A stretch of 64,000 nucleotides of DNA from Pseudolysinimonas sp. (GTDB taxonomy: Bacteria; Actinomycetota; Actinomycetes; Actinomycetales; Microbacteriaceae): contig JBHIXX010000007.1 of the NCBI GenBank assembly GCA_041984585.1, positions 1,623 to 65,622 of the forward strand. Reading direction: 5' to 3'. A model generated the notes under the pieces. That model had not been told where the DNA came from. It ran no database searches and was given only the letters and a program-made list of their open reading frames with translations. Below, in pieces: positions 3,949 to 54,505 of this stretch (positions are counted from its first letter, which is position 1; every line of letters starts with the position of its first letter). The position numbers and the translations under genes were made by a program.

Positions 3949-5223
3949 CTAACTCTTGATGTACGGCACGCCGTCCGCGGCCGGCGGACGCGACTTGCCC
4001 ACCAGACCGGCCACGGCGAACAGGGTGACCACGTAAGGCAGCATCAGCATGAACTGGCTGGGCACCGGCGAGCCGATGACGCTGAGCGCGTTCTGCAGAT
4101 TCGACGCGAACCCGAACAGCAGCGCCGCCAGGGTCGCGCGCACGGGATCCCAGCGTCCGAAGATCACCGCGGCGAGCGCGATGAAGCCGATGCCGTTGGT
4201 CATGTCCTTGTCGAAGATGCCCGCCTGCCCGAGCACGATGAACGCGCCGCCGGTGCCGGCCAGCGCACCGCTCACCACCACGTTGCGGAAGCGCGTGCTC
4301 GCCACGTTGATGCCGACCGTGTCGGCCGCCATCGGGTGCTCGCCCACCGAGCGCAGGCGCAGGCCCCAGCGGGTGCGGTAGAGCGCGAACGCGACCAGCG
4401 CCACCAGCACGTAGAGCAGGTAGACGAGGATCGTCTGCCGGAAGAAGGTCGGCCCGATCACCGGGATCTGGCTGAGCAGCGGGATGTCGATGCGCTCGAG
4501 CCGCGGCGGGCTGTTGAACGCCTCCCGGTCGGAGCTGAGCCACGACAGGTAGAGGAACCCGGTGAGCCCCGAGACGAGCACGTTGATCACGACACCGACG
4601 ATGACCTGCTCGACGAAGTAGCGCACCGCGAACACCGCGAGCAGCAGACCGACGAGCATGCCCGAGAGCGCCGCGGCGAGGATGCCGGGGTACGGGTTCT
4701 GCGTCATCGACGCCACGGCGGTGGCGCTGAACGCGCCGAGCAGCAGCTGCGCCTCGATCGCGATGTTCACCACGCCGACGCGCTCGCCGATGACGCCGGT
4801 GAGGGCGCCGTAGATGAGCGGCACCGAGAGCAGCAGGGCTCCCGAGAGCAGACCCGGCACCTGGATGGTCGCCCCGGCGCCGGCCCAGGCGAGGAACCCG
4901 ATGGCGGCGAGCACCGCGCCGACGGCGATCAGCCAGAGCGGCACCGCGATGCGCCGCCAGATCATCACCGCGGTGACCACCGCGATCGCCGCGATCGCCA
5001 CGGTCACGACGACCCCGCCCGCGATCGTCGGGTAGGAGAGCACCGGCAGGGCGACGAAGTCGGTCGCGGCCGACAGGTTGAACGAGCTGACCTCGTCGGG
5101 CGCGGTGAGCACGAACAGCACGAGCGAGATCACCGCGACGACCCCGAACACGATGGGGGTCTTCCAGTTGCGGCGGTCGATCCGGTGGCGGGTCGACGCG
5201 GCGCGGGCCAGCACGGCGCTCAC
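3949..5223 (-). CDS. ABC transporter permease (nucleoside/simple-sugar BMP-type importer, second permease)
   Basis: Hydrophobic multi-TM protein VSAVLARAASTRHRIDRRNWKTPIVFGVV...GVPYIKS. The GTG start at 5223 forms a GTGA overlap with the upstream permease stop. The 851-aa ORF in the track is a read-through of this frame. Confidence 0.8.
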   Translation of the reverse strand: MSAVLARAASTRHRIDRRNWKTPIVFGVVAVISLVLFVLTAPDEVSSFNLSAATDFVALPVLSYPTIAGGVVVTVAIAAIAVVTAVMIWRRIAVPLWLIAVGAVLAAIGFLAWAGAGATIQVPGLLSGALLLSVPLIYGALTGVIGERVGVVNIAIEAQLLLGAFSATAVASMTQNPYPGILAAALSGMLVGLLLAVFAVRYFVEQVIVGVVINVLVSGLTGFLYLSWLSSDREAFNSPPRLERIDIPLLSQIPVIGPTFFRQTILVYLLYVLVALVAFALYRTRWGLRLRSVGEHPMAADTVGINVASTRFRNVVVSGALAGTGGAFIVLGQAGIFDKDMTNGIGFIALAAVIFGRWDPVRATLAALLFGFASNLQNALSVIGSPVPSQFMLMLPYVVTLFAVAGLVGKSRPPAADGVPYIKS

Positions 5224-6491
5224 TTGGCCACCTCCGTCGTGTCGGCGCCGCCCGGCGTGCCGGTGACCCCCGGTTTCGCAGCCCGCCGCGAGCGCGGTTC
5301 GGGAAGGCGGAAGATCGCGCGCACGAGCGGCGGGGCGGCGAGGAACAGCACGATGAGCGACTGCACGACGAGCACGATGTCGATCGGGATGCCCTCCGCG
5401 ATCTGCATCGTGTAGCTGCCGGCCTGCAGGGCCCCGAACAGCAGCCCCGCGCCGAAGGTGCCCCACGGGGTGGAGCGGCCGAGCAGCGCGACCGTGATCG
5501 CGTCGAACCCGATGCCCGAGTCGACGCCCTCGGTGAACCCGCTCGGCGTGGTGCCGAGGATCATCGTCGAGATCGCCAGGCCCGAGAAGCCGCCCGCGAC
5601 GAGCATCGCGTAGAGGTAGATGCGCTCCACCTTGATGCCCGCCGACCGCGCGGCGGCCGGGTTGAGCCCCACGGCGCGGAAGCGGAAGCCGAGCGCCGAG
5701 CGCTCGATCAGCCACCAGGCGACGAGTGTCGCCGCGATGACCACCGGGAAGCCCCAGTGCAGCACGAAGCCGTCGCCCAGCAGCGGCGCGAGCACCGCGT
5801 TGTCGTTGGGCGCCGGCGAGCGCGGGTTGAACTGGCCGGGCGCCTGCAGCACCGGGGTGCGCAGCAGGTAGGCGATGAGGTAGAGGCCGACGAAGTTGAG
5901 CATGATCGTCGAGATCACCTCGTGCGCGCCGGTCCACGCCTTCAGCGCCCCGGCGATGCCACCCCAGATCGCGCCGCCGATGATGCCCATCGCGACCGCC
6001 ACGATCGCGTGCAGCACGGGCGGCAGGTCCCAGGCGAAGCTCGCGTAGCCTGCGAAGATCGCGCCGACCAGCATCTGCCCGCGGCCGCCGATGTTGAACA
6101 GCCCGACGCGGAACGCGATGGCGACGCCGAGTCCGGCCGCGATCAGCGGCGTGGCGAACACCAGCGACTGCGTCAGCGGACGGATGCCGACCACGAAGCT
6201 GTCGGCGCGGAAGTTGTAGACGGCCCCCTGGAAGAGCGCGATGTAGGCGCCCGAGATCGAGTCCCAGATGGCCGCGAACGTCGCGCCGGGAGCCGCGAAG
6301 AAGTAGGTGAACGCCTCGTGCACGTCGTCGTCGATGGCGACGATCAGGATGCTGCCGCCGAGCACCGCGAGCAGCACCGAGAGCACGGTGGTGAGCGGCG
6401 GCGCGTGCACGATCTCGTCGAGCGCGCGCTTCCACCGCGACGGCGACGGATCCGCCGCGATCTCGGGCAGGGTCTGCTTGTCGCCGCTCAT
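5220..6491 (-). CDS. ABC transporter permease (BMP-type importer, first permease)
   Basis: 423-aa multi-TM ORF. ATGA overlap with the stop of the upstream ATPase gene. Confidence 0.8.
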   Translation of the reverse strand: MSGDKQTLPEIAADPSPSRWKRALDEIVHAPPLTTVLSVLLAVLGGSILIVAIDDDVHEAFTYFFAAPGATFAAIWDSISGAYIALFQGAVYNFRADSFVVGIRPLTQSLVFATPLIAAGLGVAIAFRVGLFNIGGRGQMLVGAIFAGYASFAWDLPPVLHAIVAVAMGIIGGAIWGGIAGALKAWTGAHEVISTIMLNFVGLYLIAYLLRTPVLQAPGQFNPRSPAPNDNAVLAPLLGDGFVLHWGFPVVIAATLVAWWLIERSALGFRFRAVGLNPAAARSAGIKVERIYLYAMLVAGGFSGLAISTMILGTTPSGFTEGVDSGIGFDAITVALLGRSTPWGTFGAGLLFGALQAGSYTMQIAEGIPIDIVLVVQSLIVLFLAAPPLVRAIFRLPEPRSRRAAKPGVTGTPGGADTTEVAK

Positions 6492-43992: not shown

Positions 43993-45855
<1,863 letters not shown>

Positions 45856-46059
45856 TCAGGCGACCGGGCGCACGCCCTCGGCCTGCGGGCCCTTGGAGCC
45901 GGTGCCGACCTCGAACTGGACCGCCTGGCCCTCCTCGAGGGTCTTGTAGCCGCTCATGTCGATCGCGGAGTAGTGGACGAACACGTCCTGCCCGTCCTCA
46001 GCGGTGATGAAGCCGAAGCCCTTCTCGGCGTTGAACCACTTCACGGTCCCGTTCGGCAT
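45856..46059 (-). CDS. cspA: cold shock protein
   Basis: [34 protein letters not shown] chose the ATG at 46059, which has AGGGAG 9 nt upstream. A long AT-richer leader lies upstream. Confidence 0.95.
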
Positions 46060-46223
46060 CCGTGCCACTCCCTGTCATGCCTGGTGTCCCGAATGGTAGC
46101 CAGCCGAACGGGCCCGATCGGCCCGGAAAGCCGCCCCGACGGGGCCGGGAGGGGAGATTCAACAGAGATTAAACATCCGCGTAACACAGTGGCCGCCGAG
46201 GCCCCGGGGAGACGCCGTCCGGG

Positions 46224-46793
46224 TCAGCCCGCGGGGACGTAGTCGGTGCCGAGGAGGATGGTCACCGGCGCGCCGAGGTACGCGTCCGAGAGCACGATCT
46301 CACCCGCGCCGAGCAGCTCCGCGAGGCCCAGCGCGATGCCCTCGTAATCGGTGGTGTGGTAGAAGATCGTCGTCGTCTCCTCGGTGCGGTTCGAGGCGTT
46401 CGCGCGGGCCGGGTCGGGCCAGTTCGCGGCCTCGATCTGGTCGCCCGCCGTGTTCTGCAGCCCCTGGGTCTCGGTGCCGTTGAGCACCGAGATGGTCAGG
46501 TCGAGGTCGGGGTCGACGGTCGAGGGGTCGGTGACCGGCTCGACGGTCTCGGTCGGCTCGGTCGTCGGCTCACCTGTGGTCTCGCCGGCGCCGAAGCTGG
46601 GCAGGTCGAACTGGAAGGTCGGGTCGTAGCGCGACAGCCCGTAGAGTCCGCCGGCGACGAGGATGCCGGTGGCCAGCGCCGCCCAGGCGAACGCGATCCA
46701 GCCGCGACCGCGCGGGGCGGGCGCACGGTGCGCGCCGACCCGGGTGAGGTCGTCGGGGGTCTCGTCGAAGCGATCGGGCGGGAAGGCGGCCAT
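46224..46793 (-). CDS. LytR_C-domain membrane-anchored protein
   Basis: N-terminal TM (WIAFAWAALATGILVAGGLYGL), a Thr/Pro/Glu linker, then ISVLNGTETQGLQNTAGDQI...TILLGTDY, typical of the LytR C-terminal domain. Confidence 0.75.
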   Translation of the reverse strand: MAAFPPDRFDETPDDLTRVGAHRAPAPRGRGWIAFAWAALATGILVAGGLYGLSRYDPTFQFDLPSFGAGETTGEPTTEPTETVEPVTDPSTVDPDLDLTISVLNGTETQGLQNTAGDQIEAANWPDPARANASNRTEETTTIFYHTTDYEGIALGLAELLGAGEIVLSDAYLGAPVTILLGTDYVPAG

Positions 46794-46799
46794 CCGGTC

Positions 46800-47153
46800 T
46801 CAGTCCTGGTGTCGGTGGGATGCGGTCGTGGGACCGGGTCGTGCGGTTCCGCGCGCCGCGCGGCGGTGGTCGCGGAGGCGCTGCAGCCGCCTCACCAGCA
46901 ACGGGTCGTGCCGGAGGGCGGGCGGCGAATCGAGCACCGCATAGAGCATTTGATAGTACCGAGCTGGGGAGACGCCGAACTCGGCCCGGATGGCGGCGTC
47001 GCGCGACCCCTGCGCCGACTCGCGGGCGCGCTCGAAGGCGAGCAGCCGGCGCGCCTGATCGCCGAGGCCCGCGGCATCCGCGGCCGAGCCGGCGGAGCGA
47101 TCCGCCCGGTCGGCGAGGTCGTGCTCCGGGACGTCGGGGGTGGTGGTCGTCAC
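46800..47153 (-). CDS. DUF3263-like protein
   Basis: LLAFERARESAQGSRDAAIRAEFGVSPARYYQMLYAVLDSPPALRHDPLLVRRLQRLRD. GTG at 47153 preceded by GGAGGAGGA. Confidence 0.7.
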   Translation of the reverse strand: MTTTTPDVPEHDLADRADRSAGSAADAAGLGDQARRLLAFERARESAQGSRDAAIRAEFGVSPARYYQMLYAVLDSPPALRHDPLLVRRLQRLRDHRRAARGTARPGPTTASHRHQD

Positions 47154-47175
47154 GTCGTCCTCCTCCGACCCGAGC

Positions 47176-48207
47176 CTAGGCGGCACCACCGGCGCCACCC
47201 GGATGCCCCGACCCGGAGAGCCACGACATCCGGTCGCCGTGCGGGGCGACGTCGGCGATCGGCTCCTCGTCGAGTGAGAGCACGAAGCCGGTGGGGTCGG
47301 GGCAGTCGAGCCGGGCGCGGCGCTCCGCCACCCGCGGCAGCACCCCGCGACCCTCGAGCGCGACCAGCCGCGCCCCGCGGGCGCGCACCGCGTCGGGGAA
47401 CGCGGCGCGCGCCTCCGGGGCGAGGTAGACGAGGGTGCCGAGCGACGCGACCACGAGCTCGGCGTCGGCGGGGGCGCCTGCCAGCGCCGCATCGAGCCCG
47501 GCGAGGGCGTCGCCGCCCACCACCTCCGGCGGATCGCTCCGCGCGGTGGCGAGCGCCGCGCGGAGCCGGGCGCGGCGATCGGGCCGGTCGGCCGGGATGA
47601 GCGCCTCGAGCCAGGCGGCGTCGGTCTCGGGGTGCAGCGGGTCGAGGTCGAGGCCGCGGCGCCACACGATGTCCGGGAGCCGCCGGGGCGCGGCGCCGAC
47701 CCCGCTCACGACGCACTCGACGAGCGGATCGCCGTCGCCCAGGTCGACGGCAGCCCTGTCACCGCCCGGCGCGACGCCCTCCGCTGCCGCGGCGGAGAAC
47801 CGGTAGCGGTAGCGGTCGGGCAGCAGACAGAGTCCCGCCGACGCGCCCACCTCGAGCAGCGCGATCGGCCCGGCGATGCGCGCCAGCGCGGCGACCAGAG
47901 GCGCGCACCTCCCCACCTCGTTGGTCTGGGTGCGGCGGCGCGACGCCTCGTCGACCAGCCGATCGGCGTGGGCGAGCAGCCACTCGCGGAACGCCGGATA
48001 GCCGCCGATCGGCGCGCCGAGCAGGGTCGCGACCGAGAACACGAGCGACGGCTGCCGACGCTCGCGCGGCAGCCGGTCGAGCACGGCGAGCACCTCCGGG
48101 TCGTCGCGGACCCCGGTCGCCCAGGCGACGTGCAGCGCGCTGTGACCCGCCAGGTCGCGCGTCGCCCGGTCGTACCAGTCGGCGGTCGCGCTGCCGTCGG
48201 ATGCCAT
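47176..48207 (-). CDS. DUF2332-like protein
   Basis: ADWYDRATRDLAGHSALHVAW...TQTNEVGRCAPL...LLEVGASAGLCLLPDRYRY. The ATG at 48207 lies inside the 382-aa ORF. Confidence 0.6.
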   Translation of the reverse strand: MASDGSATADWYDRATRDLAGHSALHVAWATGVRDDPEVLAVLDRLPRERRQPSLVFSVATLLGAPIGGYPAFREWLLAHADRLVDEASRRRTQTNEVGRCAPLVAALARIAGPIALLEVGASAGLCLLPDRYRYRFSAAAAEGVAPGGDRAAVDLGDGDPLVECVVSGVGAAPRRLPDIVWRRGLDLDPLHPETDAAWLEALIPADRPDRRARLRAALATARSDPPEVVGGDALAGLDAALAGAPADAELVVASLGTLVYLAPEARAAFPDAVRARGARLVALEGRGVLPRVAERRARLDCPDPTGFVLSLDEEPIADVAPHGDRMSWLSGSGHPGGAGGAA

Positions 48208-48242
48208 GCGGGCATCCTCGCAGCGCGACCGCCGATCCGAGC

Positions 48243-51008
48243 TCAGGCCGCGCGCCGCCGGAGGAGGACGGCGACCAGGATGGCGACGAGCACCGCGAGG
48301 ACGACGAGCCCGCCGATCACCCACGGCAGCGGGGACGACGCCGAGGCGGGCTCGGCGTCCACCTCCGCACCGTCATCCGTCGTGGCGACCGGCTCGGCGC
48401 AGTCCTCGCCCACGGCGACGACCAGCGTCACCGGGTCGAGCTCGCTGCCCGCCTCGTAGGTGCCGAACGCGGCGGCGCCCGACTCGGTCAGGGTCGCCGG
48501 GATGCCCGCGAGGGTGAGCGACTCGCCCTCGATGACCTCGGCCGCCGCGACGTCGAGGGCGGCGAACTCGATGCCGATCGCCGACACCTCGTCACCCTCC
48601 TGCGTGGTGCCGGTGACATCCAGGAAGAGGATGCCAGTGTCGCCCTCGAGCACGATCCGCGGGTTCGCGATGGTCGTGTCGAGCGCCCCGCCGTGCCCGG
48701 TGAAGCGCACCGACCCGTCGAACGCGAGGTCGGCCAGGGTGCCCTCGGCGGCGAATCCGCCCTCCTCGGTGGTCCAGCCGAAGTTCGGCGTCTCGTAGGT
48801 CGCCCCGTCGGCGACGGTCCACTCGCCGTTGGCGATCGACCCGTCGATGTAGGCGCGGAACGACTCCTTGAAGCCCCAGCTCAGCGCGGCCGCGTCCACC
48901 GGGCAGCCGACCGCATCCGCCGCCGTGATGTCGAGCACGACACCCCGGTCGACCGAGCCCTGGAACGTGAGGGTGTGCTCGCCGGTGAGACCCGACGGCA
49001 GCCGGCCCGACCAGGTGACGACGCCGTCGGCATCCGCGGTCACGTCCTCGGCCAGCACGATCGGGTCCGAGTAGACGACGACCAGGATGCCGTCCTCGTT
49101 CGGCTGGAAGCCGTCCGCCGTGGCGGTGACCTCGCCGCCCTCGGCGGTCCCGCCGGAGACGACGGTGATGCCGGAGTTCGACGGCGGGGTCGCCGCCGGT
49201 CCGCCGGTCGATCCCGTCGACGCCACCGCGAAGGTGTCGAGCGTGAGCGGCGCCCACGCGTCGAGCGTGCGGTTGGTGACCGACAGCCCGTGCGCCGCGA
49301 AGGTGCCCACGCCGTAGTCGCCGCCGAGGCTCATCGCGTTGGCCGGGATCGTCAGCGTGGTCGTGAACGCTCCGCCCGACAGTGCGGATGCCGGAACCCA
49401 GGCGCTGACGATCCAGCCGCTCGAGCCGGGCACCGATCCGGGCTGCCAGGTCGACGACGAGCCGACGACGACGTACACGCCGTTCGCGGCGCCCGCCCCG
49501 GTGTAGCCGCGTCCCGACACGGTGAGGGAGTTCGAGACGGTCGGGTTGACGGTCGACGGGCTCACGCTGAGCGCCACCGAAGCGGGCGCGCCCGGGTCGG
49601 TCGGCGTGCCGCCCCCGCCCCCGCTCCCGCCGTCGTCGACCGCGGCGAAGGTGACCGGGACGAACTGGTCGTACAGGTACGGGTTGTCGGTGTTCGACTC
49701 CGAGAACGCGTGATACAGCCGCACGAACACGCCGCACTGCTCGCCACCATCCGCGGCATCCGCGCACTCGTGCTCACCGAACGACGCCGGCAGATCCATC
49801 TCCACCGAGAACGTCCACCGCCCGTCCGACACCGTGCCCGTCGCCGGAACGTACCCGCCGTACATCGACACCGAACTCACGTACTGCTGCACCGACGACT
49901 CACACGCGTCACCCGTCGCACGACCCGCCGACGACGACCCCGGCGTCTCACCCGGCTCCACACAGAACATCAGGTACACACCCGTCGCGACATCCCCCGA
50001 CGACGTCTCCACCACCGACGGGAACGACCCCGACACCGTCACCGTGTCCCCATCCGCCAGATCCACCGACGGCGACACCTCGATCGAGCCCGAGAGGTCG
50101 GGCTCCGGGTCGCTCTCCGGGTCGGTCTCGGGCCACTCGACCTCGAGCGACACGATCGCGTCGAGGCCGCGCTCGGTGACCGAGCAGCCGTGGGCGCAGA
50201 ACGCGGACACGGAGTAGGCGGTGCCTTCCTGCAGCGTGTCGGCGGGGATCTCGAGCGTGGCCGTGAACGCCCCGTCGGTGATCAGCACGGCCGGAACGAA
50301 GGCCGAGTCGATGAAGTCCTCCGCGTCCGGGGTGCTGCCCGGCGACCACGCCGCGGTCTCGCCCACGTTCACGTAGACGCCGTCGTAGTCGGTCGCGGCG
50401 TCGAAGCCCGACCCGCTGACGGTGACGGTCGCCGCCGCGGTCGGGTCGACCGCGCCCGAGGTCACCGCGAGTGCCGGATCGGCCTCCTCGTCGCCCTCGC
50501 CCGAGCCCTCACCGGAGCCCTCGCCGCCGTCGCCCTCACCGGAGCCCTCGTCGGGCCACGAGACCACGAGCGCGGTCTCGGCGTCGAGGCTGCGGTCGGT
50601 GAGTGAGCAGCCGTGCGCGCAGAACGCCATCACGGAGTACTCGGTGCCCTCCTGCAGGGTGTCGGCCGGGATCGTCAGCGTCGTGCTGAACGCGCCGTCG
50701 ACGATCGAGGCCGTCGGCACGAACGCCGAGTCGATGAACCCCGACGAGGGCGGCGTCGACCCGGGCGACCACATCGAGCTTTCGCCGACGTTGACGTAGA
50801 CGCCCTGGGCGGCCGCGCCGACCTCGAAGCCGGTCCCGCTGACGGTGACGGTCGCCGTCGCGGTCGGGTCGACGGCGCCCGACGGGACGCTCAGCGCGGG
50901 CCCGACGGCGAGGGCCGGGATCGCGGGGATGCCGATGAGGGCGAGGACGGCGCTCAGCAGCAGGGCGAGCAGGACGGCGGCGCGTGGGCGCGCGGGTGCG
51001 TGGGGCAC
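48243..51008 (-). CDS. large secreted, C-terminally membrane-anchored surface protein with three tandem ~115-aa repeats, a Cys-rich domain and an HtaA (heme-transport-associated) domain
   Basis: - GTG start with GGAG 6 nt upstream, and a signal peptide ...IPALAVGP.
- Repeats at aa 38-152, 179-292 and 478-592.
- HtaA signature LSWGFKESFRAYIDGSIANGEW...FDGSVRFTGHGGALDTTIANPRIVL at aa ~705-865.
- The C-terminal WVIGGLVVLAVLVAILVAVLLRRRAA has no LPXTG. Confidence 0.85.
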   Translation of the reverse strand: MPHAPARPRAAVLLALLLSAVLALIGIPAIPALAVGPALSVPSGAVDPTATATVTVSGTGFEVGAAAQGVYVNVGESSMWSPGSTPPSSGFIDSAFVPTASIVDGAFSTTLTIPADTLQEGTEYSVMAFCAHGCSLTDRSLDAETALVVSWPDEGSGEGDGGEGSGEGSGEGDEEADPALAVTSGAVDPTAAATVTVSGSGFDAATDYDGVYVNVGETAAWSPGSTPDAEDFIDSAFVPAVLITDGAFTATLEIPADTLQEGTAYSVSAFCAHGCSVTERGLDAIVSLEVEWPETDPESDPEPDLSGSIEVSPSVDLADGDTVTVSGSFPSVVETSSGDVATGVYLMFCVEPGETPGSSSAGRATGDACESSVQQYVSSVSMYGGYVPATGTVSDGRWTFSVEMDLPASFGEHECADAADGGEQCGVFVRLYHAFSESNTDNPYLYDQFVPVTFAAVDDGGSGGGGGTPTDPGAPASVALSVSPSTVNPTVSNSLTVSGRGYTGAGAANGVYVVVGSSSTWQPGSVPGSSGWIVSAWVPASALSGGAFTTTLTIPANAMSLGGDYGVGTFAAHGLSVTNRTLDAWAPLTLDTFAVASTGSTGGPAATPPSNSGITVVSGGTAEGGEVTATADGFQPNEDGILVVVYSDPIVLAEDVTADADGVVTWSGRLPSGLTGEHTLTFQGSVDRGVVLDITAADAVGCPVDAAALSWGFKESFRAYIDGSIANGEWTVADGATYETPNFGWTTEEGGFAAEGTLADLAFDGSVRFTGHGGALDTTIANPRIVLEGDTGILFLDVTGTTQEGDEVSAIGIEFAALDVAAAEVIEGESLTLAGIPATLTESGAAAFGTYEAGSELDPVTLVVAVGEDCAEPVATTDDGAEVDAEPASASSPLPWVIGGLVVLAVLVAILVAVLLRRRAA
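49233..49577 (-). repeat. intragenic domain repeat 3 (divergent, Cys motif lost: TFAAHGLS)
   Basis: Protein-level alignment: GVYVVVGSSSTWQPGSVPGSSGWIVSAWVPASALSGGAFTTTLTIPANAM...YGVGTFAAHGLSVTNRTLDA. Confidence 0.7.
50133..50474 (-). repeat. intragenic domain repeat 2 (AFCAHGCS motif)
   Basis: GVYVNVGETAAWSPGSTPDAEDFIDSAFVPAVLITDGAFTATLEIPADTLQEGTAYSVSAFCAHGCSVTERGLDA. Confidence 0.8.
50553..50897 (-). repeat. intragenic domain repeat 1 (AFCAHGCS motif)
   Basis: GVYVNVGESSMWSPGSTPPSSGFIDSAFVPTASIVDGAFSTTLTIPADTLQEGTEYSVMAFCAHGCSLTDRSLDA. Confidence 0.8.
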
Positions 51009-51051
51009 GACAGCTCCAGGGGGATGAGCCGGGTAATCCGGCAGGAATGAC

Positions 51052-51070
51052 TTAGCTAAGGCTCAGCTAA
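51052..51070. promoter_or_regulatory. IdeR/DtxR iron box 1
   Basis: TTAGCTAAGGCTCAGCTAA matches the consensus TWAGGTWAGSCTWACCTWA at 16/19 positions, with perfect TTAGCT/AGCTAA arms. It overlaps the putative -10. Confidence 0.75.
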
Positions 51071-51093
51071 CTTCCCTACCCCGGGTTTGTCAA
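51065..51093 (-). promoter_or_regulatory. candidate promoter of the HtaA-domain gene (TTGACA-N17-TTAGCT)
   Basis: The minus strand reads cTTGACAaacccggggtagggaagTTAGCTg. It has a perfect -35 hexamer and 17-nt spacing, and both hexamers are overlapped by the iron boxes. Confidence 0.5.
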
Positions 51094-51110
51094 AGGCAAG
51101 CCTTACCTAA
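51092..51110. promoter_or_regulatory. IdeR/DtxR iron box 2
   Basis: The reverse complement TTAGGTAAGGCTTGCCTTT matches the consensus TWAGGTWAGSCTWACCTWA at 17/19 positions. It abuts and overlaps the -35 TTGACA. Confidence 0.75.
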
Positions 51111-51260
51111 ACAGATCGTTCCACCCGGGTTCGGCGCCGCCCGCGGGCGTTCCGAGGGCGTCACCACCGTCCACCGGGAACGAAACAGAGCCCGCTCCGG
51201 TTGAATGGGGAGACGGGCGAGGGCCGCATCCCCGGCCCCGGACGACGCGGAGGACGCGAC

Positions 51261-51680
51261 ATGGACACCACCGGCAAGCAGTACGCCGTCGACAAGACCG
51301 ACGAGCAGTGGCGCGACGAGCTCGGCGACGAGCAGTACCGCGTGCTGCGCGAGGCGGGCACCGAGCGGGCATGGACGGGCGAGCTGCTCGACGAGCACCG
51401 CTCCGGCCTCTACGCCTGCGGCGCGTGCGGCGCCGAGCTCTTCCAGAGCGGCACCAAGTTCGACTCCGGATGCGGCTGGCCCAGCTTCTACGAGTCGGTG
51501 AAGCCGGAGGCCGTGGAGCTGATCGAGGACACCTCGCTCGGCATGGTGCGCACCGAGGTGCGCTGCGCCAGCTGCGGCTCCCACCTGGGGCACGTCTTCC
51601 CCGACGGCTTCGGCACCCCGACCGGCCTGCGCTACTGCATGAACTCGGTGTCGCTGACGTTCACCGCCGACGAGTCCTGA
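51261..51680 (+). CDS. msrB: peptide-methionine (R)-S-oxide reductase
   Basis: Two CxxC zinc pairs (CGACGAEL and CASCGSHLGHVF) and the catalytic RYCMNS. GGAGGA lies upstream of the ATG at 51261. Confidence 0.9.
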   Translation: MDTTGKQYAVDKTDEQWRDELGDEQYRVLREAGTERAWTGELLDEHRSGLYACGACGAELFQSGTKFDSGCGWPSFYESVKPEAVELIEDTSLGMVRTEVRCASCGSHLGHVFPDGFGTPTGLRYCMNSVSLTFTADES

Positions 51681-51690
51681 GCGGCCGGCG

Positions 51691-52242
51691 ATGAGCCGAC
51701 GGCCGGTCGCGGCCGCGATGGAGCGCCGCCGCTCGCAGCCCGCGGTCACCGACCGGGCCCCGAGCGACCGGCGACTGCGCAAGCTGCTGCGCGCGGCGGG
51801 CGGCGTCGCCGACCACGGCGGACTGCGCCCCTGGCGCGTGATCGCGCTGCGTGGCGACGCCCGCGAGCGGCTCGGCGCGGCACTGGCCGAATCCGCCGGA
51901 CTGACCGGGCCCGCGGCCGCCAAGCTCGCCGCGAAACCGCTGCGGGCGCCACTGCTGCTCGCCGTCGTGGTCAGCCCGAGACCGAGCAGCAAGGCCCCCG
52001 ACTGGGAGCAGGAGGCCGTCGCCGCGGGCGTCGCGCACGCGCTCAGCCTGGTGCTCGACGAGGACGGCTGGGGAGTGATGTGGCGCACCGGCGAGCACAC
52101 CCGCACCGAACCGGTGCACCGGATGCACGGCCTCGCGCCCGACGAGCGGCTGCTCGGCTGGCTCTACGTGGGCGGACGACGCGACGACCGGCGCAAGCCG
52201 CGCAGGCCGATCCGCGCCCGCGACCACCTCACGGCGCTCTGA
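51691..52242 (+). CDS. nitroreductase-family protein
   Basis: RRSQPAVTD...LLRAAGGVADHGGLRPWRVIAL is typical of the nitroreductase fold. 183 aa. Confidence 0.7.
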   Translation: MSRRPVAAAMERRRSQPAVTDRAPSDRRLRKLLRAAGGVADHGGLRPWRVIALRGDARERLGAALAESAGLTGPAAAKLAAKPLRAPLLLAVVVSPRPSSKAPDWEQEAVAAGVAHALSLVLDEDGWGVMWRTGEHTRTEPVHRMHGLAPDERLLGWLYVGGRRDDRRKPRRPIRARDHLTAL

Positions 52243-52254
52243 CGCGCCCCGCGG

Positions 52255-53295
52255 TCAGCTCCGCCGCATCCGGAGCGTCCGCGGCGCCGCCGCGACCAGC
52301 ACCGCGCCGAGCAGCAGCGCCGCACCGACGACGGTCGCCGGGTCGAGGGTGGAGCCCGGCACCGGCGCCAGCAGGTCGAACAGCACGGATGCCGTGAGCT
52401 GCCCGGCGAGCAGCGCCAGCCCCATGAGCAGCACCCCGGTGGTACGGACGATGAGCGCCTGCGCCGCGATGAACACGCAGCCGACGGCGCCGCCCGCGTA
52501 GAGCCACCACTCCCCCGGCAGGTCGGCGCGCCACCCGCCGATGAGCACGTGCACCCCGAACACTAGGGCGAGCACGACCGCGCCGACGAGGAAGTTGGCG
52601 AAGGTCGCGGTGAACGCGGAGCGCGCGACCGACCGCACCTGGCCGTTGACCGCCTGCTGCCAGCCGACCATCAGCCCCGCGACGATCGGGATGACCAGCA
52701 GCAGGAACGGGGCGTCGGGGCGGATGCGCTGCGACACCGCGACGCCCACCGCCACCACCGCGAGCGCCGCGCCGGCGACCCGCGTCGGGGTGGCGGGGGT
52801 GCGCGCCATGAGGGCGAGTCCCCGGTGGTCGAGCAGCAGCGAGCTCACGGTCTGGCCGCAGACGACGCCCACCGTGTAGAGGGCCACGCCGAGCGCGCCG
52901 ACCGTGAGCCCCTGGCCCAGGACGAACACGGCGCCCCCGACGCCGCCCAGCACGAGCCACCACGGGATCTCACGGCGCCGGAGCGCGCCGACCACCCGGG
53001 CGACACCGCGACGGCCGGGACCCCAGAACGGCAGGAGAACGGCCAGCAGCAGGAACCCCGAGCCGAACGAGATGAGCGCCGCCAGGTAGCCGTCGCCGAG
53101 CCGCACCCCGAGTTCGCCGTTGATGCGCGACTGGAGCGCGACGAGCCCGCCGGTCGCGAACGCCGCCCCGAGCGCGAGCGCGAGGCGCGCGGGCGAGACA
53201 TCCGGCGGAGACCCCGGCGCCGCCGGGGCCGGATCGGCGGTCGGCGGATCACCGGGGGTCGCGGGCGCGCCGGAGTCGCTCGGCACGTCGGTCAC
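52255..53295 (-). CDS. DMT-superfamily transporter (duplicated YdcZ/DUF606-like)
   Basis: About 10 TM helices, with two similar halves each containing a ...Q..ING/VNGQ... motif (LQSRINGELG and QQAVNGQVRS). The only in-frame starts are the GTGs at 53295 and 53286, directly after the tRNA. Confidence 0.7.
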   Translation of the reverse strand: MTDVPSDSGAPATPGDPPTADPAPAAPGSPPDVSPARLALALGAAFATGGLVALQSRINGELGVRLGDGYLAALISFGSGFLLLAVLLPFWGPGRRGVARVVGALRRREIPWWLVLGGVGGAVFVLGQGLTVGALGVALYTVGVVCGQTVSSLLLDHRGLALMARTPATPTRVAGAALAVVAVGVAVSQRIRPDAPFLLLVIPIVAGLMVGWQQAVNGQVRSVARSAFTATFANFLVGAVVLALVFGVHVLIGGWRADLPGEWWLYAGGAVGCVFIAAQALIVRTTGVLLMGLALLAGQLTASVLFDLLAPVPGSTLDPATVVGAALLLGAVLVAAAPRTLRMRRS

Positions 53296-53296
53296 G

Positions 53297-53369
53297 AGCC
53301 CCCTGTCGGGATCGAACCGACGACCTTCGCTTTACAAGAGCGGTGCTCTACCAGCTGAGCTAAGGAGGC
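53297..53369 (-). tRNA. tRNA-Thr (anticodon UGU)
   Basis: GCCTCCTTAGCTCAGCTGGTAGAGCACCGCTCTTGTAAAGCGAAGGTCGTCGGTTCGATCCCGACAGGGGGCT folds as a cloverleaf: 7-bp acceptor stem, GCTC/GAGC D stem, CTTGTAA anticodon loop, and GTCGG-TTCGATC-CCGAC T arm. No CCA is encoded. Confidence 0.9.
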
Positions 53370-54423: not shown

Positions 54424-54487
54424 CACCGACTCCGATGACGGAGCCCCACCCATTCACAACGGATCGTCCGGCACGTACCTGCCGGTG
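54424..54487 (+). promoter_or_regulatory. structured 5' leader upstream of the msiK-type gene (possible msiK RNA motif)
   Basis: Hairpins CTCCG-ATGA-CGGAG (54430..54443) and CCGGCA-CGTACC-TGCCGG (54468..54485). Possible long-range CACCG/CGGTG pairing lies just before the AAGGGAAG Shine-Dalgarno region. Confidence 0.3.
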
Positions 54488-54505
54488 AAGGGAAGTAGTA
54501 CAGCT

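Follow-up and report, generated by a model that had tools for sequence, protein, structure and literature searches.

The subject of this analysis is a single minus-strand gene, htaA, in a 64-kb stretch of a Pseudolysinimonas sp. genome (contig JBHIXX010000007.1; by 'the window' we mean this whole stretch), together with its predicted 921-residue product, which we consider likely to be an ordinary iron-repressed, membrane-anchored surface protein of the HtaA type, putatively heme-binding, from a bacterium of the family Microbacteriaceae. An initial annotation of the same DNA had proposed a surface protein of the HtaA type that is regulated by iron, carries repeats of no recognised kind and has no transporter gene beside it, and this core reading is right. 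What we add is that the unrecognised repeats, here called R1, R2 and R3, and a four-cysteine module that lies among them form one neocarzinostatin-like superfamily that is strongly associated with HtaA domains, both within fused proteins and in neighbouring genes. The other parts that had been described (a signal-like N-terminus, an acidic linker, the four-cysteine module, a third repeat, an immunoglobulin (Ig)-like stretch and an HtaA domain) are all present in the open reading frame, whose features are collected in Table 1.

It is the HtaA domain that carries the functional assignment. The Pfam HtaA family (PF04213) matches residues 707-862 with an E value of 1.8e-44 and a score of 152.7 bits (cut-off 24) over positions 2-163 of a 164-position profile, and Pfam reports no other domain on the 921-residue protein. 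Alignment with solved CR domains, namely those of Corynebacterium glutamicum (6jsa, 6jsc and 6js9 in the PDB) and the CR2 domain of C. diphtheriae HtaA (8smu), gives E values of 1e-23 to 1e-16. Domains of this kind bind ferric heme through an axial tyrosine in helix alpha1, while a serine four residues upstream of that tyrosine and a C-terminal tyrosine hold propionate and a helper histidine, preceded by a glycine, hydrogen-bonds the axial tyrosine (PMC12494546). All four of these heme-pocket elements are kept in the window protein: Ser716 and Tyr720 (KESFRAYI) align with SFQNYI and SFQSYI of 6jsa and 8smu, Gly771-His772 (FTGHGG) aligns with ftGHgg of 6jsa, and Tyr851 aligns with the tyrosine of 'fYeags' in 8smu. 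The sole difference of 6jsc from 6jsa is an alanine at the position aligned with His772. Judged by these residues this is a standard, intact CR domain that is predicted to bind heme, and the clear HtaA domain that had been claimed is borne out by score and pocket alike. In addition, a pair of cysteines (GC702PVD and GEDC870AEP) brackets the domain at 48405-48908; both members of this flanking pair are found in 67 of 88 terminal HtaA domains of relatives and a single member in none (0/88), which suggests that C702 and C870 form a disulfide by which the two termini of the CR domain are clamped together.

Regulation by iron is the second strand of the argument. Both strands of the window were scanned against the 19-bp palindromic IdeR/DtxR consensus TTAGGTTAGGCTAACCTAA, and sites with five or fewer mismatches numbered just two in the whole 64 kb, both of them in the spacer between htaA and msrB, as against 0.07 per strand in shuffled sequence. 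Box 1, at 44-62 nt before the GTG start, begins 17 nt beyond a TTGACA hexamer and overlaps the -10 position, and the upstream box 2 ends inside that same -35-like hexamer (51088-51093). This TTGACA-N17-TTAGCT arrangement was read by eye and is suggestive only, and a sigma-70 promoter scan returned nothing by its own criteria; taken as read, the placement of the boxes over -35 and -10 would be the usual geometry of repression. Better-matching boxes also stand upstream of homologues in two other genomes (with two mismatches at locus L005 and two to three at L006), and among the syntenic loci discussed below, boxes with four or fewer mismatches occur in two of the five that are HtaA-positive versus one of the 64 that are HtaA-negative, where the lone box lies about 4 kb downstream of the LytR_C gene and away from the msrB junction. 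With two predicted boxes over its promoter and further boxes upstream of its homologues, the gene is very likely iron-regulated, as had been proposed.

The remainder of the protein is where the wider interest lies. Compared pairwise by Smith-Waterman alignment against shuffles, R1 and R2 are identical at 81 of 116 residues (70%; z 63) and 76% identical at the DNA level, while R3 shares about 50% identity with either, so that two repeats of about 115 residues are certainly there but 'near-identical' overstates their likeness. Nor are there three CAHGC-type repeats, as was first thought, since that motif is confined to R1 and R2 and the corresponding part of R3 reads TFAAHGLS. The nearest relative of R1 is R2 and vice versa (67%), which indicates a duplication within the gene that would have followed the appearance of their cysteine pair. 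R3, for its part, is 64-66% identical to the R copy of proteins with the domain order NNRIH (in these strings R stands for an R repeat, N for a neocarzinostatin-like (NCS-like) module, I for an Ig-like domain and H for HtaA); by sequence it is the orthologue of the R copy in a conserved R-Ig-HtaA core, and R3, the Ig-like domain, HtaA and the transmembrane (TM) helix make up what we take to be an inherited core.

The initial annotation could not place the N-terminal repeats, and indeed they match no family in Pfam or NCBIfam at an E value of 0.01 or below. Searches of PDB sequences with R1 and with an R profile gave nothing meaningful, and DsrH, which surfaced there as a possible R relative at an E value of 0.86, was dismissed as a chance match. 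The AlphaFold model of R1 is confident (predicted local distance difference test score, pLDDT, 95.9) and consists of an eight-strand sandwich with a short helix over CAHGC, for which Foldseek returned only generic matches to antibody V-domains, carbohydrate-binding modules and SKICH domains with template-modelling scores (TM-scores) of 0.4-0.53; neocarzinostatin was absent from these R1 matches, and no specific structural relative could be named from them. For the four-cysteine module, modelled from an alignment of homologous modules (pLDDT 91.5), 12 of the 13 best PDB matches are enediyne apoproteins, with a probability of 1.00 and target-normalised TM-scores of 0.62-0.71. They include neocarzinostatin, kedarcidin, macromomycin, C-1027 and actinoxanthin, and the match at rank 8 is a neocarzinostatin chain in a complex whose other member is an artificial repeat-protein binder. 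PDB sequences searched with a profile of the module point the same way, with ten members of the neocarzinostatin family among 13 matches at E values of 0.03-0.9 (best 0.027), a similarity that rests mainly on the N-terminal strand 'TVSPSTGL.DG.TVTVSG'. The four cysteines (349, 369, 415 and 425) are conserved in the cysteine-type modules of relatives. R1 and the four-cysteine module both gave confident sandwich models, and repeats and module alike belong to no curated family.

That R and the four-cysteine module are two branches of one neocarzinostatin-like superfamily follows, at the level of profiles, from two results: hhalign aligned the two over their full length (97.2% probability, E value 3.7e-11, 111 columns; 96.5% in a repeat run), and a weak R-like module in the relative P0014 bridges them by scoring 23.9 bits on the Pfam Neocarzinostat profile, whose cut-off is 25. 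The Ig-like domain reached 58-62% in hhalign against R and the four-cysteine module. The idea that either kind of module is itself a diverged HtaA/CR domain was considered and rejected, the hhalign probability being 0.5-4.8%, and HbpA of C. diphtheriae is CR-like and not NCS-like. A Thr-Gln ester-bond motif (HxDxxDxxQ) was likewise set aside, as the sequence, read by eye, has H-x5-D-x3-D and no glutamine. A literature search pairing HtaA with neocarzinostatin returned one unrelated genome-mining paper.

The cysteines of R1 and R2 had attracted attention as a C-x-H-x-C pair that could be a metal or heme ligand, or a disulfide. Across 338 R copies from 173 proteins, both positions are cysteine in 8 and both are something else in 330, a single cysteine being found in no copy at all; the usual residues are alanine and leucine, within the consensus T-[SWF]-A-A-H-G-L-S-x-T-D-R-S-L-D. 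AAHGL is therefore the ancestral state across the R family and the cysteine pair the derived one, which turns around the initial view that R3 had lost both cysteines, and the pairs look like lineage-specific gains in a few lineages. Because the two cysteines co-vary perfectly and replace a small/hydrophobic pair, we favour the disulfide over the metal or heme site, and the pair, which would occupy positions i and i+4 where the short helix begins, is probably a buried local disulfide. It is not a c-type heme motif either, which would read CxxCH.

How widely the R family is distributed, and in what company, bears directly on what the modules may do. An R profile matched 658 representative proteins at E values of 1e-3 or below among 1.84 billion (360 of them at 1e-10 or below), and HtaA is present in 104 of the 173 R-bearing proteins examined, or about 60%; since HtaA is rare among surface proteins, this proportion looks far above chance. 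The HtaA proteins with R show dozens of domain orders, which include RRRIH, RRIH, NNRIH, RRRRIH, RNNHIH and HRR along with many singletons, of which the RRNRIH of the window protein is one, so that the 'unusual architecture' described at the outset is a real layout but not a singular one, being one permutation within a combinatorial family. The association also extends to neighbouring genes. On a metagenomic contig of 56.6% G+C (L081, 5193-13618), adjacent genes on the same strand encode HtaA-SLH, R-R-R-SLH and R-R-SLH proteins (SLH, S-layer homology), so that the parts of the HtaA and R fusion are here divided over separate genes and anchored by S-layer homology repeats, and no iron box with five or fewer mismatches was found at that locus. 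Fusion plus adjacency is a classic signature of a functional link, and because the modules are fused to HtaA in one lineage and adjoin it in another, we do not regard them as inert spacers. A plain Ig-like spacer had been named initially as the identity that would count against a binding role, and the repeats fit that description by half: they are Ig-like beta-sandwiches, but their association with HtaA, fused and neighbouring, is strong. The relative P0014, mentioned above, is a protein of 1109 residues with three HtaA domains that ends in a sortase signal (LPXTG) where the window protein has its TM helix, and the R/HtaA family accordingly uses both modes of anchoring.

The mechanism that we propose from these observations runs as follows. 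When iron is plentiful, a repressor of the IdeR/DtxR type would occupy the two operators overlapping -35 and -10, and when iron is scarce the gene would be expressed. The product would then be exported by the Sec pathway and held in the membrane by its C-terminal helix, with the HtaA domain, which lies about 28 residues from that helix, placed just above the membrane, where it would bind ferric heme through Tyr720 with the help of His772, Ser716 and Tyr851; the heme would presumably be passed to an importer of the HmuTUV type encoded elsewhere. Beyond HtaA lies a distal array of five predicted beta-sandwich modules (R1, R2, the NCS-like module, R3 and the Ig-like domain), which would be accessory and whose modules vary in number and type by lineage. 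This array most likely spans the cell wall and helps to capture or position a heme source; lying farther out than the membrane-proximal HtaA domain, it cannot serve as a stalk on which HtaA is raised. The cysteine pairs of R1 and R2 would serve as local stabilising disulfides.

Several observations weigh against this account. First, tblastn with Agromyces HmuTUV found no HmuT or HmuU homologue in the 64-kb window, where there are generic ATP-binding cassette (ABC) ATPases only, so that the initial remark that no heme ABC transporter lies nearby holds. Second, some proteins without HtaA have R in the midst of fn3 and SLH repeats, as would also suit a role that is only structural. Third, the four-cysteine module falls below the Pfam threshold for PF00960 (12.2 bits against 25, over the first 20 profile positions only); with a confident fold match but a sub-threshold sequence match, we call it neocarzinostatin-like in its modelled fold and not a member of PF00960. 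Fourth, the 35-nt gap between the htaA stop codon and the DUF2332 gene holds no terminator-like site, which fits co-transcription with the genes downstream. On the first of these points the relatives offer some context: the hmuTUV genes of Agromyces run divergently from the htaA homologue, with which they share iron boxes, and in Demequina a heme oxygenase gene and hmuTUV lie directly downstream, while in the clade closest to the window protein the gene is solitary and an unlinked hmuTUV is common. In Corynebacterium (C. diphtheriae), too, the CR genes chtA/chtB and chtC reportedly lie away from hmuTUV.

The second point leads to a rival in which the array has only a structural part to play, as a plain Ig-like spacer that spans the wall or serves in adhesion, with no role in heme acquisition, and its link with HtaA reflects only domain shuffling among actinobacterial surface proteins. 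We regard this as possible though on balance unlikely. A generic Ig-like fold, a copy number that varies greatly at one orthologous locus (zero included), the company of fn3 and SLH in other proteins and conserved positions that are mostly structural are all what such an extension would be expected to show, but HtaA sits beside the membrane anchor and so is not raised by the array, HtaA is found in about 60% of the R-bearing set, and the split arrangement still has its R genes adjoining the HtaA gene.

At the other extreme, the R and NCS-like modules might themselves bind heme, porphyrin or a hemoprotein by way of an NCS-type cleft and the conserved histidine of AAHG/RLYH, making the protein a multi-site capture-and-relay device comparable to IsdH and IsdB with their successive NEAT domains. 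The neocarzinostatin fold is indeed a known scaffold for small hydrophobic ligands, the top structural matches including engineered testosterone binders; the modules co-occur with HtaA, by fusion and in neighbouring genes, and lie distal to it; and His132, which aligns with a conserved histidine of the four-cysteine module, is present in 90% of R copies of HtaA proteins versus 58% elsewhere, in counts that are uncorrected for phylogeny. Yet the split SLH proteins, whose genes neighbour an HtaA gene, lack the equivalent of this histidine in their R copies, the invariant positions of R are glycines and aromatic core residues, R also keeps company with fn3 and SLH in HtaA-less proteins, and the structural matches of R1 are generic Ig-like ones with TM-scores of about 0.5, and we think this reading unlikely. 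Quite unlikely, in our estimate, is the more specific proposal that R and NCS-like modules together make up a novel type of capture domain in actinobacterial heme acquisition, one that binds a heme source (a hemoprotein or porphyrin, for example) or relays heme across the thick wall to HtaA; if true, they would do in Microbacteriaceae what HbpA or hemoglobin-binding NEAT domains do elsewhere, with the neocarzinostatin cleft re-used for tetrapyrroles. We therefore stay with the accessory, wall-spanning array set out above as the preferred account.

The genes downstream had also been drawn into the story. The initial annotation noted the tight same-strand spacing of htaA to DUF2332, DUF3263 and LytR_C, which is confirmed (gaps of 35, 22 and 6 nt), and proposed that the four genes are one iron-responsive operon forming an undescribed iron or heme acquisition module. 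Besides the gaps and the missing terminator-like site, that proposal can call on the same gene order around a 98% identical relative, but comparison across the family makes it highly improbable. When 69 Microbacteriaceae loci around the LytR_C orthologue were searched with the window proteins, GroEL was found in all 69, DUF3263 in 67, MsrB in 61 and DUF2332 in 40, whereas an HtaA domain between msrB and DUF2332 or DUF3263 was found in 5. The order YdcZ, nitroreductase, msrB, (DUF2332), DUF3263, LytR_C and groEL is kept across Microbacteriaceae genera (window 43993-53295 compared with L012-L080). Because DUF3263, LytR_C and groEL are near-universal together but HtaA is present in so few loci, htaA is an occasional occupant of one junction in a conserved housekeeping block, and HtaA genes recur at this junction, just behind msrB. 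The occupants differ very much in length (HtaA alone in three loci, NN-H-I-H and R7-H-I-H in the other two), and in them the N-terminal array can be seen to grow and shrink freely, down to zero copies. Closer homologues of the window gene sit elsewhere, between cysS and ispDF-carD or after msrB and ahead of HAD and trpS. Also unfavourable to a shared iron module are a sub-threshold resemblance of DUF3263 to the NCBIfam model of the nucleoid-associated protein NapA (73.3 bits against a cut-off of 160), and the lack, in every HtaA-negative locus, of a box with four or fewer mismatches at the msrB junction. DUF2332, DUF3263 and LytR_C are conserved housekeeping neighbours outside the iron/heme system, even if there is some read-through.

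As for the immediate relatives, two NCBI assemblies contain the exact protein and the 98% identical one, the neighbouring genes being the same in both, and the relatives of this protein, like those of the neighbouring gene products, come from Microbacteriaceae (Pseudolysinimonas, Microcella, Agromyces, Salinibacterium, Curtobacterium and others). The full-length protein, used as a query, gave matches in a word index of 5.8 billion proteins, where a query with R1 only gave zero matches, R1 itself included, and BLAST of the 921-residue protein against itself gave the identity match only. The signal peptide and the membrane anchor in Table 1 were judged by eye from the sequence; the initial reading of an anchor that lacks LPXTG agrees with the hydrophobic C-terminal helix and the basic residues behind it. 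The remaining cysteines of the protein are at residues 130/134 in R1 and 271/275 in R2.

Table 1. Positions in the window of the htaA gene, its protein domains and its upstream signals.
Feature	Position	Strand	Basis
Coding sequence of the 921-aa HtaA-domain surface protein, GTG start	48243..51008	-	Open reading frame list, Pfam
IdeR/DtxR-like iron box 2, TTAGGTAAGGCTTGCCTTT, 5 mismatches	51092..51110	-	Consensus scan
IdeR/DtxR-like iron box 1, TTAGCTAAGGCTCAGCTAA on + strand, 4 mismatches	51052..51070	-	Consensus scan
GGAG ribosome-binding site, 5 nt before the GTG at 51008	51014..51017	-	Read directly
Sec-type signal peptide (aa 1-34) with an Arg-rich n-region, a hydrophobic core and ALA|V	50907..51008	-	By eye
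R1 repeat, aa 36-152, CAHGC variant of the R beta-sandwich module	50553..50903	-	Smith-Waterman, AlphaFold
Acidic Gly/Glu/Ser linker, aa 153-176, DEGSGEGDGGEGSGEGSGEGDEEADP	50481..50552	-	Sequence reading
R2 repeat, aa 177-293, CAHGC variant, probable in-gene duplicate of R1	50130..50480	-	Pairwise comparison
Neocarzinostatin-like four-Cys module, aa 304-456; C349, C369, C415, C425	49641..50099	-	AlphaFold, Foldseek
R3 repeat, aa 477-592, consensus AAHGLS form	49233..49580	-	Sequence comparison
Ig-like domain, aa 607-700; precedes the terminal HtaA domain in most relatives	48909..49190	-	Domain-order comparison
HtaA/CR hemin-binding domain (predicted), aa 701-868; bracketed by C702/C870	48405..48908	-	Pfam, PDB alignments
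C-terminal transmembrane anchor, aa 893-916, then RRRAA; no LPXTG	48261..48332	-	By eye

Some further features of the window, whose G+C content is about 73%, were recorded along the way. An Rfam msiK RNA motif at 54441-54500 on the plus strand, which scores 64.5 bits (gathering score 33), immediately precedes a gene for an ABC ATPase of the MsiK/MalK type (PF00005, OB_MalK, TOBE_2), and a tRNA-Thr gene with anticodon TGT (53296-53369, minus strand) lies just upstream of the YdcZ-family gene. At 4037-5266 there are plus-strand open reading frame fragments with the codon-position G+C of an antisense shadow (about 0.5, 0.7 and 0.97), no minus-strand open reading frame there passed the filter intact, and the AT skew of 4001-6000 is unusually high at 0.237; the region could be a disrupted gene or an artefact of gene calling.

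Work on heme uptake by CR/HtaA proteins has been done nearly entirely in Corynebacterium, and it is therefore worthwhile to record that environmental Microbacteriaceae carry HtaA proteins under the apparent control of iron boxes, with an outer part made of unnamed modules. The R family amounts to about 660 representative sequence clusters, and giving it a name would improve the annotation of hundreds of surface proteins that are now listed as 'HtaA domain-containing' or hypothetical. In addition, the R and NCS-like modules provide a concrete set of domains in which to look for binding of a heme source, while a false lead is removed, in that DUF2332, DUF3263 and LytR_C are not iron-uptake genes. 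In our view, what the R and NCS-like modules do is the sole question here of wider interest.

Among known systems, the closest are the Corynebacterium proteins HtaA, HtaB, ChtA, ChtB and ChtC, which share with the window protein the CR domain with its axial tyrosine, upstream serine, Gly-His pair and propionate tyrosine, as well as a signal peptide, a C-terminal membrane helix and upstream operators of the DtxR/IdeR type. They differ in that the host of the window protein is a non-mycolate member of the Microbacteriaceae, and in that its one CR domain comes after some 600 residues of R, NCS-like and Ig modules; the characterised Corynebacterium CR proteins are not known to contain modules of these kinds. 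ChtA has a disulfide in its beta6-beta7 loop (PMC12494546), unlike the cysteine pair of the window protein, which brackets the whole CR domain.

For the outer modules, the neocarzinostatin-family apoproteins (PF00960) offer the best fold match to the four-cysteine module and share the motif of its N-terminal strand. Neocarzinostatin itself has two disulfides, and the module resembles it in having four cysteines as two nearby pairs. On the other hand, the module is about 40 residues longer and is embedded in a large surface protein, where the family's apoproteins are free proteins of about 110 residues, no enediyne gene cluster is found among the genes annotated around htaA (msrB, nitroreductase, YdcZ and DUF2332), and the R repeats have lost all of the canonical neocarzinostatin cysteines. 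As a functional analogy only, the architecture recalls IsdH and IsdB of Staphylococcus aureus, in which hemoglobin-binding NEAT domains precede a heme-binding NEAT domain: in both cases beta-sandwich modules that do not bind heme (as we would predict for those of the window protein) lie distal to a single heme-binding domain that uses a tyrosine ligand, although the folds and families are unrelated and the Isd proteins are anchored by sortase where the window protein relies on a TM helix.

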